From: an uncultured Chlamydiae bacterium
GTDB taxonomy: Bacteria; Chlamydiota; Chlamydiia; Chlamydiales; Parachlamydiaceae
Assembly: GCA_963754655.1 (NCBI GenBank)
Contig: CAVWGN010000001.1
Span: 2,592,001-2,656,000 of the forward strand
Direction: 5' to 3'
DNA length: 64,000 nt
Shown here: positions 17,150-31,948 of the stretch, one piece after another
How positions within the stretch are numbered: position 1 is the stretch's first letter
How the letters are laid out: the number at the start of each line of letters is the position of its first letter
Program-made: the position numbers and the translations under genes
Notes under the pieces: generated by a model
Seen by the model: only the letters and a program-made list of their open reading frames with translations
Databases searched by the model: none
Told to the model about the DNA's origin: nothing

Positions 17150-17651
17150 CTAGTACTCAACCACACTAGTTTTGTGTATTTAGACTCTTCAAAGCCCCGG
17201 GACTAGGGTGTTCATTTTGTGCAAAAAATGAGCTTATTTTTTACAATAATTGGCATAATTAAATTGAAGGTCGCATATTTATGCCGTCCTTTCAGGACTC
17301 GATGTCTTTTTGATAGAACCCAGGCCTCCGCTTCGCTGCGACCTGGGCTGTAACATAACGGCCCTTCAGGCCTTAACAAGAGATGTTTAAGTCCCTCTTC
17401 TATAGTCCCTAAATCATCTTTTTGTTAAGGCCTGAAGGGCCGTTATGTTACAGCCCAGGTCGCAGCGAAGCGGAGGCCTGGGTTCTATCAAAAAGACATC
17501 GAGTCCTGAAAGGACGGCATAAATATGCGACCTTCAATTTAATTATGCCAATTATTGTAAAAAATAAGCTCATTTTTTGCACAAAATGAACACCCTAGTC
17601 CCGGGGCTTTGAAGAGTCTAAATATACAAAACTAATGTGGTTGAGTACTAG
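17150..17651. mobile_element. Giant palindromic element, family A, copy 1
   Basis: 230-bp inverted arms 17150-17379 and 17422-17651 with 2 visible mismatches; CTAG at both ends. Confidence 0.95.
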
Positions 17652-17681
17652 GCAAAAACTCATATGGCGGAGTATTAGGAA

Positions 17682-18323
17682 TTACAAAATTTCCCACCCG
17701 TTTTGCAGACAAATTCGCTTTAAATAACCATCTGGCTCCACCCCTATCGCTTGTCCTGCCATTTGTAATATAGGTAAATCTAAATAGCTATCAGAATAAA
17801 CAGTAATTGCAGATGGAGGAAGCTGCATTCGATCGATTAACGCCTTGATATAGTTTGCTTTATCTTCTCCATCCATGACACTTGCAATAGCCGTTAGCTT
17901 TCCCATTTCATCTGTTTGATACACTGTCGCTTTCCAGTGAAACACATGAAGCCGCTCAGCAATTTCTTTTACCAAAAAATCAGGAGAACTTGATAAAATA
18001 AGAACCTCCTCTTTCTGATTTTGCGCATTTTCAAGCCTCTGAACAACAGGAGGATATAAGAAACCCCTTAAGGATTCATTTAAAAACATGTCAACATAGC
18101 GATTGATATCGGAAAGAGTGCGTCCTATAAAGATGCGTTTGAAAGTCTTGGCATGCAAATCTGCAATCGACATTCCCAGCCATTTGTGGCGCGCATAATC
18201 GATTAAGCAGCCTAGAAGGGTCCAGAATGAAAAAAACTTTTGGCAATAAAGGAAAGAGCCAAAGCGGAAGCTACTATTGACAGTGAGTAAAGTATGATCC
18301 AGATCAAAGATAGTTAAACCCAC
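17682..18323 (-). CDS. HAD-IB family hydrolase
   Basis: FDLDHTL, ILSSS, YSDSYLDLPIL motifs. Confidence 0.9.
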   Translation of the reverse strand: MGLTIFDLDHTLLTVNSSFRFGSFLYCQKFFSFWTLLGCLIDYARHKWLGMSIADLHAKTFKRIFIGRTLSDINRYVDMFLNESLRGFLYPPVVQRLENAQNQKEEVLILSSSPDFLVKEIAERLHVFHWKATVYQTDEMGKLTAIASVMDGEDKANYIKALIDRMQLPPSAITVYSDSYLDLPILQMAGQAIGVEPDGYLKRICLQNGWEIL

Positions 18324-18378
18324 AGAATCATATCCCTCAATGTATCAATAATTTAAGCATAAATTGAACTGATTAGCT

Positions 18379-28468: not shown

Positions 28469-28674
28469 GCAATTAGATAAATTGAATTTTGATGACAAAA
28501 GGCCTCTTCATGGTTTAAAACATTTTTTTTCTCAAACGCATGTTAACCCTGGGAGGCCAAATTTCAGGACTTTCAAGTATTTCTAAAAGTAACTTTGCAG
28601 AACAAGATCGCATGATAAAAATACGACGGAGTATTAGAGCGTGTCTAAATAAAAAAAACGATTCTTTTTTCCAT

Positions 28675-31215
28675 TCAAAAAATTTTTAGGCGTGGAATAG
28701 GACGGGTGCGTGAAACATTGGAAATATTGGGGTGCCTGGGTTTTATAGGTCTAGGTTGCCGTTTAGGTTTAACCATGCGAGTTTGTTCATTTCTTGCTAT
28801 TCTCAAATTTCTCATTTGGTCTTCTACTTCTATCGCCCTTGCTTTTTGAGTGACTCTTTTATTATCAGGTCTTGGTGTGTCTAAAACCACTCGATCTTGA
28901 AATATTTTTTTTGTATCTGCTACTTCTTTTCGTAGGTTGTCTCTCTTTATATCCGAGATAAATTGCTTACGATTTGCTGAAATTCGGTTGAGATATGTCT
29001 GTTTCATCTTCTCTAATCTCATTCTTTGCTTTGTTGATAGAAAAGAGATTTCTATTCCTGAAAAAAGTTGATTAATGCTTTGAGATTGTATTTGAAAAGT
29101 GCGGAAATTCGCTGAAATTTCATGATCAGAATGAGGAGAGAATTCACTTGTATCGATTTCGAAGTCACCTGCCATCACTTCATCGGCAGCTATTGTTAAT
29201 TGTTTAACCATTTTCTGATAATTTGCCTTTTGTCGCGTCTGCGCTTCACGACCTTCTTGAATTAAGAGCTGCTCAATAGATTCATTTAATGAGGACACGG
29301 GACTCATCTTTTCTTTTCCCATTGGGTAATCAGAAAATGTTTTTAAAGATTGAAAAGCTTTCTTTCTTTCTTCCTGTTCGATTTTTTCTTCTTCCCAAGG
29401 AAGTTTTTCTCTTATGGTAGACGCTTTAAGGTTGTTGTCGTTGGAAGCCAAAGGTAAGGATTCCATGACCTCAGAATTCTGTTGCGAGTCAGTTGTTTTT
29501 GCAGGTTGTTCGGTTTTAAATGATTGCTCATCAACCTGAGCTTTTTTGCGTGTAGGTAAGGATCTAAAAATAAGAATCAGCATACATTCGAAAGCAAAAT
29601 ACATCACTTGTTTTTGTAAATCATCGTTGTTAGATGGGTTAGATGGGTGACTTACAGATTCTTTTTCTTGAATCTTCTTAGTGAGTTGTTCAATGTTAAT
29701 CTCATCGGGAGGAATAAGCTCATCTAATTTTTCCTTTAAAATTTTCGCAAGCTGTTCATTAACTGTATTTTCATCTATATACGTCAAAAAGGCTTCTCGA
29801 ATCTCGTTCTGAAATTTTCCTTTGCTTTCTGAAAGAGTAAAGAGTTGGGGATTAGTGCTGACAATTTGCTCAGCTATGAATTTTTGAAGATCTTTTACGG
29901 CTTTGTCTGTATCGCTTGGAGTTGAACTCGTCGAGTTAATTGTCTCCATAATCCCCGTGGCTATTGCAGTAGCAACACCTGTGATCAGGAATGTTGCAAT
30001 TTTTGCCTTTGAACCAATAGTAAGAGAAGCAATCAAGCCAACCCCTGCAACTCCAAAAGAATTCACTAAGCGCCGCATAAATTCTAAAGATTCATTATTT
30101 AAAATTGTGATTGCTTTTTCTTCTTTCTTAATTTCCATTATTTTAGCTGAAGAATGTGTCTTGACTTCTATACCAGCTAAGAACGCGTTCAAGATAGCCA
30201 TACCCATAATAAAAGGCATTGGACCTTTTGTTTTTAATTTATCCAAAGCAACCGTATTTGTTAATACTTCTAAAGTACTAATGCTGGTTCCTCGAACAAC
30301 TTCCTTTAATACCTCTACAAGTTTATTTTCCTTAAATGCAGATGAAGGTTGAGTTTGTTGGGGAGCCACTAAATTTGACATTTCTTGTTTGCGTTGAAGC
30401 CAACTAGACGTTGTTTTATTTTGATAAATTTCTGTAGAACTTTTAAAATCATTTTGCTTGTTCAAAACGATTTGATCGAGTTCTTGACACCACTGCTCAT
30501 ATTCTGTTTGGCCAAATTCTTTTGGAAATTCATATCCCATGAAAGATCCCGCTTTTTGGTAAATGAGCTTGACATAATCAAAAGGAAAAGCTTTTTTTGT
30601 AGGTAACTGTTCCAGAAAAACTCTTTTTAACCGCTCTGAAACATCTTGCATCTCTGAGCCGGCTTCCTTTGCGAGCACTGTAAATTGCTCAACATATTGA
30701 TTTAATTCTTTTTCATGCTTTTGCTGTTCTTGCTTAATTGCGTCTACCACTTTAGTATAAGCTTGGCTGCGCATTTCTTGTTCGGATGGAGAGAGCTGCT
30801 GAGCAACGACACCTTTTACTCCATCAGCTACAATTTTAGGTATAGATGGAACAGCTTTGGAAGGAACCACTTTAGAAACCACTTTAGGATACGCATTAAG
30901 CACTTGTTCGGTAAGACTACCTGCAATACTAGGAAGGCTATTTGTTAACATCTCTCCAGTAGTTAAGCTCGTTCTAACTTCTGCTGAAGTTGTAGAAGTC
31001 AAAGGCGAATCTTCTTCTGAAGTCTGATGATTCGAATTTGAATCTAAATATAAATAGTTTGCTGCACCTTCAAATAAGCGAGCAGCAAAACCATAAATCG
31101 ACTGAGCGGTAGAATGAATAGGTGCCCTATTTTCTACATTTTGCTCGTTATTTTGCTCGTTTAATTTTTCACTTGGTTCGACTTTTTGCTTGGAATTAGA
31201 AGGTCCAACTTGCAT
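28675..31215 (-). CDS. Large hypothetical protein with central hydrophobic segments, candidate secreted or inclusion-membrane protein
   Basis: 846-aa ORF; Ser/Thr-rich N-terminus, coiled coils, hydrophobic stretches near aa 330-430; AT-rich upstream region. Confidence 0.7.
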   Translation of the reverse strand: MQVGPSNSKQKVEPSEKLNEQNNEQNVENRAPIHSTAQSIYGFAARLFEGAANYLYLDSNSNHQTSEEDSPLTSTTSAEVRTSLTTGEMLTNSLPSIAGSLTEQVLNAYPKVVSKVVPSKAVPSIPKIVADGVKGVVAQQLSPSEQEMRSQAYTKVVDAIKQEQQKHEKELNQYVEQFTVLAKEAGSEMQDVSERLKRVFLEQLPTKKAFPFDYVKLIYQKAGSFMGYEFPKEFGQTEYEQWCQELDQIVLNKQNDFKSSTEIYQNKTTSSWLQRKQEMSNLVAPQQTQPSSAFKENKLVEVLKEVVRGTSISTLEVLTNTVALDKLKTKGPMPFIMGMAILNAFLAGIEVKTHSSAKIMEIKKEEKAITILNNESLEFMRRLVNSFGVAGVGLIASLTIGSKAKIATFLITGVATAIATGIMETINSTSSTPSDTDKAVKDLQKFIAEQIVSTNPQLFTLSESKGKFQNEIREAFLTYIDENTVNEQLAKILKEKLDELIPPDEINIEQLTKKIQEKESVSHPSNPSNNDDLQKQVMYFAFECMLILIFRSLPTRKKAQVDEQSFKTEQPAKTTDSQQNSEVMESLPLASNDNNLKASTIREKLPWEEEKIEQEERKKAFQSLKTFSDYPMGKEKMSPVSSLNESIEQLLIQEGREAQTRQKANYQKMVKQLTIAADEVMAGDFEIDTSEFSPHSDHEISANFRTFQIQSQSINQLFSGIEISFLSTKQRMRLEKMKQTYLNRISANRKQFISDIKRDNLRKEVADTKKIFQDRVVLDTPRPDNKRVTQKARAIEVEDQMRNLRIARNEQTRMVKPKRQPRPIKPRHPNISNVSRTRPIPRLKIF

Positions 31216-31442
31216 AAAATCTCCGATATTTAAATTAATAATAAATATAATAATTATATTTATCTAATATCTATTATAACTTAAATTAAATTATTTTATA
31301 ATAAATATAATAAAAAAATAAATTTTAGTTTAAAATAAATAATTTAAATATAATAAGATAACTAAAATTAGATTTTAAAGGCAATTAAAGCTATCGAACA
31401 TTAAAATTGAAAGTAATAGTAATTAAAACATTACTCATGGTA

Positions 31443-31948
31443 CTAGTAATCAACTACACTACTTTTTTGTATTTAGACTGCTTCAAAGCCCCGGGGCTAG
31501 GGTGTTCATTTTGTGCAAAAAATGAGCTTTATTTTTCACAATAATTGGCATAGTTAAATTGAAGGTCGCATGTTTATGCCGTCCTTTCAGGACTCGATGT
31601 CTTTTTGATAGAACCCAGGCCTCCGCTTCGCTGCGACCTGGGCTGTAACATGACGGCCCTTCAGGCCTTAACAAAAAGATGATTTAGGGGCTATAAAAGA
31701 GGGACTTAAACATCTCTTGTTAAGGCCTGAAGGGCCGTCATGTTACAGCCCAGGTCGCAGCGAAGCGGAGGCCTGGGTTCTATCAAAAAGACATCGAGTC
31801 CTGAAAGGACGGCATAAACATGCGACCTTCAATTTAACTATGCCAATTATTGTGAAAAATAAAGCTCATTTTTTGCACAAAATGAACACCCTAGCCCCGG
31901 GGCTTTGAAGCAGTCTAAATACACAAAACTAATGTGGTTGAGTACTAG
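31443..31948. mobile_element. Giant palindromic element, family A, copy 2
   Basis: 232-bp arms 31443-31674 and 31717-31948; the ORF track gives an identical 63-aa ORF on both strands, consistent with the symmetry. Confidence 0.95.

Follow-up and report, generated by a model that had tools for sequence, protein, structure and literature searches.

Introduction

Long perfect palindromes tend to be unstable in bacterial genomes, and in Escherichia coli the hairpins that they form are destroyed by the nuclease SbcCD. The correction of imperfect palindromes (quasipalindromes) by template switching during replication is reportedly known from a study by Ripley in 1982 and from studies of E. coli by Lovett and others. 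Here, we describe long palindromic repeats in a 64,000-nucleotide stretch of the genome of an uncultured chlamydia of the Parachlamydiaceae (the window; positions 2,592,001 to 2,656,000 of contig CAVWGN010000001.1, assembly GCA_963754655.1), in particular the two copies of an element that we call family A (17150..17651 and 31443..31948), and follow these repeats through the whole genome. Differences between family A copies largely recur in both arms of each copy, and our preferred reading, to which we assign a probability of roughly 60%, is that the arms of these non-coding, mobile, and nested palindromic repeats co-evolve by short-patch templated correction between close and near-identical arms.

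Concerted evolution of inverted repeats can take two routes, homologous recombination or template switching (PMC5941160), and the correction of quasipalindromes by template switching is supported by evolutionary evidence (PMC5941160) as well as by work in yeast (PMC8604942) and on RNA hairpins (PMC8794818). Similar to what we report, this correction perfects an imperfect repeat from its other arm, comprises substitutions as well as small indels, works in either direction, and is favored by hairpins. However, most cases described so far are single loci with arms of a few to some tens of nucleotides, whereas the arms studied here measure 100 to 300 nt and belong to around 150 dispersed mobile copies. 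The palindromes of mammalian X and Y chromosomes are kept more than 99% alike by gene conversion from arm to arm (PMC3723533, PMC8600007, and PMC8981503). They resemble our elements in that their arms stay alike while the whole palindrome diverges from its relatives, but they differ in having arms of kilobases to megabases, tracts of several kilobases, recombination in meiosis or mitosis, and a bias towards GC that is not significant in our data.

Two further systems are close in other respects. The mitochondria of Nematomorpha contain perfect coding palindromes with inverted repeats of up to 284 bp, for which paired substitutions between two individuals are described and template switching is proposed (PMC6649704). 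The paired substitutions in long inverted repeats are shared with our elements, though the nematomorph palindromes are parts of protein-coding organelle genes and do not move, whereas those described here are mobile and non-coding. Compensatory changes are also common across the hairpins of REPINs (PMC3116915). Compared to the REPINs of Pseudomonas, which are around 100 nt long and tied to a flanking RAYT gene, the elements of this genome are larger (250 to 650 nt), consist of nested shells with CTAG ends, and have no consistent link to Y1 transposase genes. A literature search of partial coverage, which does not prove absence, found no paper on concerted arm evolution in chlamydial repeats. 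The process as such is already known (PMC5941160 and PMC3116915), and the present elements are a clear instance of it on unusually long, numerous, and mobile bacterial palindromes.

Mirrored differences between copies of family A

Copy 1 of family A comprises a left arm at 17150..17379 (+; 230 nt, 99% complementary to 17422-17651), an asymmetric loop of 42 nt at 17380..17421 (+) that sets the orientation of the element, and a right arm, likewise of 230 nt, at 17422..17651 (+). Its arms are composed of an outer shell (arm positions 1-46) followed by inner modules, and we regard family A elements in general as nested shells because similarity to copy 1 stops at recurrent, mirrored breakpoints. 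Compared to copy 1, the loop of copy 2 (31675..31716, −; 42 nt) lies in the opposite orientation, and 2 of its positions differ. By this loop orientation, the first arm of copy 2 (31443..31674, +; 232 nt) is its right arm; the second arm, also of 232 nt, lies at 31717..31948 (+), and the two are 98% complementary.

For all six full-length family A copies in the genome, we put the left arms and the reverse complements of the right arms into one alignment. An earlier note on this DNA had listed seven differences between copies 1 and 2 as being present symmetrically in both arms, and our alignment bears this out for all of them (two 1-nt indels, four A/G differences, and one T/C difference). Column 16 of the alignment also differs in both arm comparisons, but as a swapped one-arm asymmetry, and five more differences are found in a single arm only, all of them in the outer 27 columns. 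Similarly, the mismatches between the arms of copy 2 are confined to the outer part (columns 6, 12, 16, 19, and 24, i.e., the outer ~25 nt), essentially as had been described.

The same behavior had been claimed for another family, which the earlier note called family C. Its copies lie at 42176..42583 (arms of 162 nt, 99%) and 54122..54732 (arms 89% complementary, one of them hosting another element) and thus outside of the range for which they had been cited (17150..31948). The three differences quoted for them are indeed mirrored, but the copy at 54122-54732 has around 10 one-arm asymmetries in 106 shared columns. Given these asymmetries and the complementarity of 89%, the parallel to family A is only partly true for this copy.

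Arms group by element throughout the genome

BLAST searches located the family A loop at 91 loci, with the element extending over at least 60 nt to each side. Some of these elements carry other outer shells and have nearly perfect arms of up to 295 nt. Since the 91 loci have the 42-nt loop and the boundaries of the shells in common, the palindrome including its loop is the unit that is copied. This observation bears on the idea that the palindromes arose one by one, each when a single-arm copy that had already diverged was duplicated in inverted orientation. The inner module of around 100 nt is old and widespread (present in 11 of 40 related genomes, G001-G040) and some few palindromes have hardly any relatives in the genome, as this idea would have it, but neither the common loop and boundaries nor the mirrored changes that arose within single lineages of insert-sharing elements (see below) agree with it, and we consider it extremely improbable.

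Both arms span the family A core in 45 elements. Arm differences among them amount to 3.11 within an element (with none at all in 10 of the 45), compared to 7.29 between left arms, 6.85 between right arms, and 7.09 between left and right arms of other elements. With the edge columns trimmed, the 45 elements show 1.22 differences within elements versus 4.30 when arms are re-paired, and none of 10,000 permutations gave a value as low. In a tree of the 90 arms, the two arms are exclusive sisters for 20 of the 45 elements, and the side label changes 31 times along this tree, compared to 24.5 ± 2.0 times for shuffled labels. The within- and between-element differences, the re-pairing, the sister arms, and the side-label changes all indicate that arms cluster by element and not by side, which is the outcome that the earlier note had predicted for a tree of all arms.

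A k-mer scan extended this view beyond family A. It yielded 385 inverted-repeat candidates, of which 154 with arms of at least 80 nt and a spacer of at most 120 nt were kept; 31 of these palindromes are perfect and 68 are diverged by at most 1%. When the partner arm was compared to all other arms for 278 arms, it was the best match of 150, tied for 37, and was beaten for 91. In each of six families (n = 48, 28, 11, 8, 6, and 5), the number of arm differences falls below the expectation for random pairing (F = 0.48-0.87). For instance, the 8-member family has 1.5 arm differences within versus 12.5 between elements. The corresponding values are 8.27 versus 22.38 for the 11-member family, to which the window palindrome at 20956..21452 belongs only if its assignment holds, and 1.75 versus 3.38 for the 28-member family, for which the same proviso applies to 26728..27062. 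Beyond mechanism, these results carry a warning for repeat phylogenies, namely, that the arms of such elements are not independent records of history.

Substitutions and indels shared by both arms

Across the six families, we counted 87 private changes in both arms of one element versus 131 in one arm. Based on the total of 305 private arm changes and 23,528 arm-sites, only around 0.5 to 0.7 two-arm changes would be expected by chance. Transversions (37) outnumber transitions (31) among the 87 two-arm changes; the other 19 are indels, and the mirrored indels have lengths of 1 to 5 nt. Transitions are rarer among two-arm substitutions (31 of 68) than among one-arm substitutions (63 of 97), and the one-arm mismatches lack any excess of wobble pairs (14 G.T versus 17 A.C when oriented by the loop; 182 versus 173 genome-wide).

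These numbers speak to the possibility that compensatory double mutations arise independently and are kept because a stable hairpin, of RNA or DNA, is selected for. Such selection has some appeal in light of the structure: Folded as single-stranded DNA, the whole of family A copy 1 forms one very stable hairpin (−295.5 kcal/mol, z = −51.9), and compensatory changes are known from bacterial repeats (PMC3184786). There is no Rfam match at the gathering threshold in the family A element, though each arm carries a sub-threshold motif resembling Acido-Lenti-1 (RF01687; 35.2 bits versus a cut-off of 37) at 17319-17373 (+) and 17428-17482 (−), respectively. However, less than one coincident double change would be expected where 87 are seen, transitions are underrepresented among the two-arm changes, 19 mirrored indels are included, and no wobble preference is apparent on either strand. 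Stepwise compensatory evolution via G.U pairs does not fit changes of this kind. We therefore consider selection on the hairpin a very unlikely explanation, in agreement with the earlier view that independent compensatory mutation is implausible.

Two-arm changes are not always private to their element. Besides the 87 purely two-armed changes, only 10 alleles are found in both arms of one element and one arm of another. The haplotypes at 14 informative sites are identical in both arms for 29 of the 45 family A elements, and the other 16 often have alleles of another subfamily in one arm. All four allele combinations are present in 25 of 91 informative site pairs. The alleles of other subfamilies in single arms and these site pairs together suggest that patches also move among dispersed copies. 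With regard to base composition, single-arm point changes and 1-nt indels show a GC-to-AT bias. GC-biased conversion was considered as well, but the difference is not significant (63:21 versus 33:18, p = 0.24).

A 60-nt insert shared in one arm only

Eight family A elements, all outside the window (C1:2078004-2078600, 2229860-2230430, 44808-45374, and five others), carry a palindromic mini-element of around 60 nt in one arm only, at the CCCGGG junction of outer shell and core. Both of its orientations occur, and it lies to the right of the loop in 5 elements and to the left in 3. The elements at C1:2078004 and C1:2229975 occupy different loci, both bear the insert in one arm, and have merely 3 differences in around 585 nt. 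Two other pairs (44808/1456431 and 1111029/1561805) have the same one-arm insert variant in both members, yet each pair shows at least three mirrored small changes. These insert-sharing pairs indicate that transposition copies both arms as they are, that the arm is not rebuilt as a whole, and that correction works on short patches and spares a heterology of 60 nt. The small size of the mirrored indels (1 to 5 nt), the rarity of alleles that are two-armed in one element and one-armed in another, and the haplotypes at the 14 informative sites point the same way. The one-arm marker at column 16 switches sides while the one-arm insert stays in place, which fits a recurrent polymorphism rather than inversion of the loop, the change that would be the mark of template switching.

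The insert also bears on the idea that a whole arm is resynthesized at each transposition by fold-back or hairpin-primed copying, so that all copies would be born perfect and would acquire one-arm changes only later. Perfect palindromes (31 of 154), the abundance of private two-arm changes, and the similar arms of old, diverged families like the 8-member family (1.5 versus 12.5) would all follow from such a process. Yet a one-arm insert of 60 nt that is kept at different loci, including a pair of elements that are near-identical overall, contradicts it for the insert-bearing lineages. It also fails to account for the arms of around 30 of the 91 family A loci that end at different module boundaries, for the loop-proximal ~12 nt that are imperfect but identical in nearly all copies, and for alleles of other subfamilies in a single arm, which makes whole-arm resynthesis extremely unlikely. 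The earlier note had proposed that one arm is templated from the other by hairpin-primed synthesis, template switching, or intramolecular gene conversion; our results support the core idea, and template switching and gene conversion fit as long as they work on short patches, but hairpin-primed resynthesis of a whole arm does not. For measuring how one arm corrects the other in a bacterium, these elements form a natural data set, in which substitutions and indels of 1 to 5 nt were copied and an insert of 60 nt was not.

Movement of the elements and functions of the host genome

The six full-length family A copies have six unrelated flanks and CTAG at both ends. With many copies at unrelated loci, a size too small for a transposase, and defined ends, family A bears the hallmarks of miniature inverted-repeat transposable elements. 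The terminal motif has 150 matches in the genome, some of them in pairs 0.6 to 3.9 kb apart. The genome itself (3.12 Mb plus a contig of 35 kb, 38.8% GC) encodes four TLC nucleotide transporters and gave no match for FtsZ, as fits a chlamydia; a protein-atlas search produced just generic MiaA clusters. The transposase genes of the genome comprise seven full-length genes of the Y1 type (IS200/IS605-type) and one IS630-type DDE gene, but the family A module lies within 1.2 kb of only two of the seven Y1 genes, unlike the flanking arrangement of REPINs and RAYT genes.

These findings are relevant to a scenario in which patchy correction happens only during movement: The element would be excised as a single strand (e.g., by a Y1 transposase of the IS200/IS605 type) and fold into a hairpin, and mismatches would be repaired before or after insertion. 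The seven Y1 genes would provide the required enzymes, the REPIN study proposes just such a single-stranded hairpin intermediate alongside the common compensatory changes in hairpins (PMC3116915), and correction tied to movement would likewise spare a heterology of 60 nt. On the other hand, few Y1 genes are close to a family A module, the outer ends rather resemble those of a cut-and-paste element that targets CTAG, and an IS630-type DDE gene is present. Furthermore, the near-identical pair of insert-bearing elements moved without visible correction, and nothing links correction to movement. Altogether, this scenario seems unlikely. If it held, the folded intermediate would serve to proof-read itself and each jump would clean the palindrome, so that bacterial transposition would have a mode that corrects its own product; this could explain how palindromes of 250 to 650 nt spread and stay perfect without SbcCD.

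As another possible source of arm sequence, we considered fold-back copying of flanking DNA. Private sequence of at least 40 nt is present in 8 of the 154 palindromes, but it resembles diverged variants and not the flanks. The innermost family A hairpin and its loop are also found in two tandem arrays (C1:1766861-1767843 and 2208721-2209658) with five or six units and a period of around 133 to 136 nt; in the array at C1:1766861-1767843, the arms of the units pair over just ~18 nt.

RecA, MutS, and MutL are encoded in the genome. By contrast, searches for SbcD gave no match and searches for SbcC gave only P-loop-level matches, though the controls were positive in 13 and 14 of 14 genomes. The apparent lack of SbcCD may let around 150 long palindromes be tolerated. 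That a genome apparently without this nuclease contains so many of them, with arms in clear concerted evolution, stands out against the usual instability of such palindromes in bacteria.

Possible routes of correction and points that weigh against it

Short-patch templated correction between the arms would mean that a change in one arm is either erased or copied across to the other by a homology-dependent, short-tract process between adjacent inverted arms. Most likely, this would take place while the element stays where it is, during replication or repair. Candidate routes are template switching where a quasipalindrome forms a hairpin, conversion of one inverted repeat by the other through RecA, or repair of mismatches in extruded hairpins by MutS and MutL. 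Exchange of patches would probably occur among dispersed copies as well, and the apparent lack of a hairpin nuclease like SbcCD would let the long palindromes persist.

The geometry of the arms is informative in this regard. The density of raw mismatches rises from 1.2% to 6.6% away from the loop, in line with the decay of symmetry that the earlier note had expected. However, this rise vanishes after normalization for diversity: Along the family A core, the deficit of arm differences stays level between 0.70 and 0.86, and across families it does so between 0.52 and 0.64. Arm divergence increases from 1.9% for spacers of 30 to 60 nt to 5%-8% for spacers above 250 nt, a trend that is correlative and confounded with family.

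Several observations weigh against arm-to-arm correction or limit its reach. First, 91 of the 278 arms are closer to an arm of another element than to their own partner, and one four-member family has an F near 0 in its outer shells. Likewise, the two arms of family A hardly match in their outermost shell of ~46 nt (12 differences observed versus ~13.8 expected, compared to 6 versus ~22.9 further in, for the six copies). Recurrent one-arm states are merely weakly same-sided (12 same versus 8 opposite among sites seen twice), so the inheritance of small asymmetries is not well shown. Moreover, repeated entry of the one-arm insert at one hot spot is possible in principle, and an effect of polishing is conceivable. 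Family as a confounder takes weight from the spacer-length trend, and the data do not separate the three candidate routes named above. Finally, the genomes of the same genus gave no orthologous copy, so that correction in place, rather than during movement, is no more than probable.

Related genomes and metagenomes

Matched arms are also found in G016, a member of another genus with an independent assembly, where seven elements show 5.4 arm differences within versus 25.5 between elements over 108 columns. This result matters for the concern that the pattern is an artefact of assembly or polishing, in which reads of one arm were placed on the other and real differences were erased. The arms are reverse complements of each other within around 500 nt, so that misplacement of this kind is conceivable. 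Yet as many as 582 mismatches and 143 gaps between arms survive in the 154 palindromes, the artefact would not create variants that are private to one element in both of its arms, and G016 repeats the pattern independently. We consequently regard an artefact as highly improbable.

A different picture emerges for G020 from a related genus. Its arms are around 15% apart, and with 15.9 differences within versus 17.2 between elements they are not matched. The ~100-nt module is arranged there in tail-to-tail pairs with a spacer of around 10 nt (loci L025-L031), and the linkers differ between the arms. The arms of G020 seem to be of two side-specific types, opposite to the pattern in the genome studied here. 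Our data suggest how correction depends on the length of the spacer and the similarity of the arms, with G020, where the same module is not homogenized, as a natural contrast.

The distribution of the inner module is patchy: Several other genera and two further families of the order show it strongly, but it is almost missing from three genomes of the same genus, which hints at transfer or differential loss. In these three same-genus genomes, where genes are 70%-80% identical, synteny is present but a search for orthologous palindromes gave no element matches. A metagenome scan with a 26-nt loop pattern had 0 matches, and a search of a plasmid collection with 12 kb of contig 2 gave only chance matches of around 60 nt.

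A search of sequencing runs yielded only contig sets from soil metagenomes, with small query shares of 0.20 and 0.07. The contigs over positions 14000-33999 of the window are short and of low depth; the unique ones among those listed (164-271 nt) are identical to the window or one letter off, and none bridges a palindrome. Because these short contigs are identical to unique parts of the region, the same or a nearly identical organism is present in the soil metagenome. In one run (X1), the unique parts of the region were seen at a depth of around 3x and were identical.

Other palindromes and neighboring features of the window

At least eight long palindromes are found in the window, and the four within 17150..31948 are all intergenic. 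Besides the two family A copies, the latter include a family B palindrome at 20956..21452, with nested arms of 100 and 110 nt and an unconfirmed family membership, and a palindrome of a third family at 26728..27062. This third family has a second copy in the window (42642..42983), and its membership in a larger genome-wide family is likewise unconfirmed. A further nested palindrome with arms of 52 and 50 nt lies at 8801..9184.

Apart from these elements, an inverted repeat of 48 nt (6220-6267 and 7668-7715) encloses 1.4 kb within an AT-rich part of the window (6001-8000; 29% GC compared to around 40% in the surrounding DNA). Next to the third-family palindrome, positions 27149-28468 (+) encode a protein of 439 amino acids with ankyrin repeats and an F-box, a eukaryote-like combination that is typical for amoeba-associated intracellular bacteria. 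The end of this gene overlaps with a member of another repeat family of around 94 to 110 nt (28452-28561), which occurs at many dispersed loci in two genomes of the same genus, G002 and G003, at 82%-85% identity.

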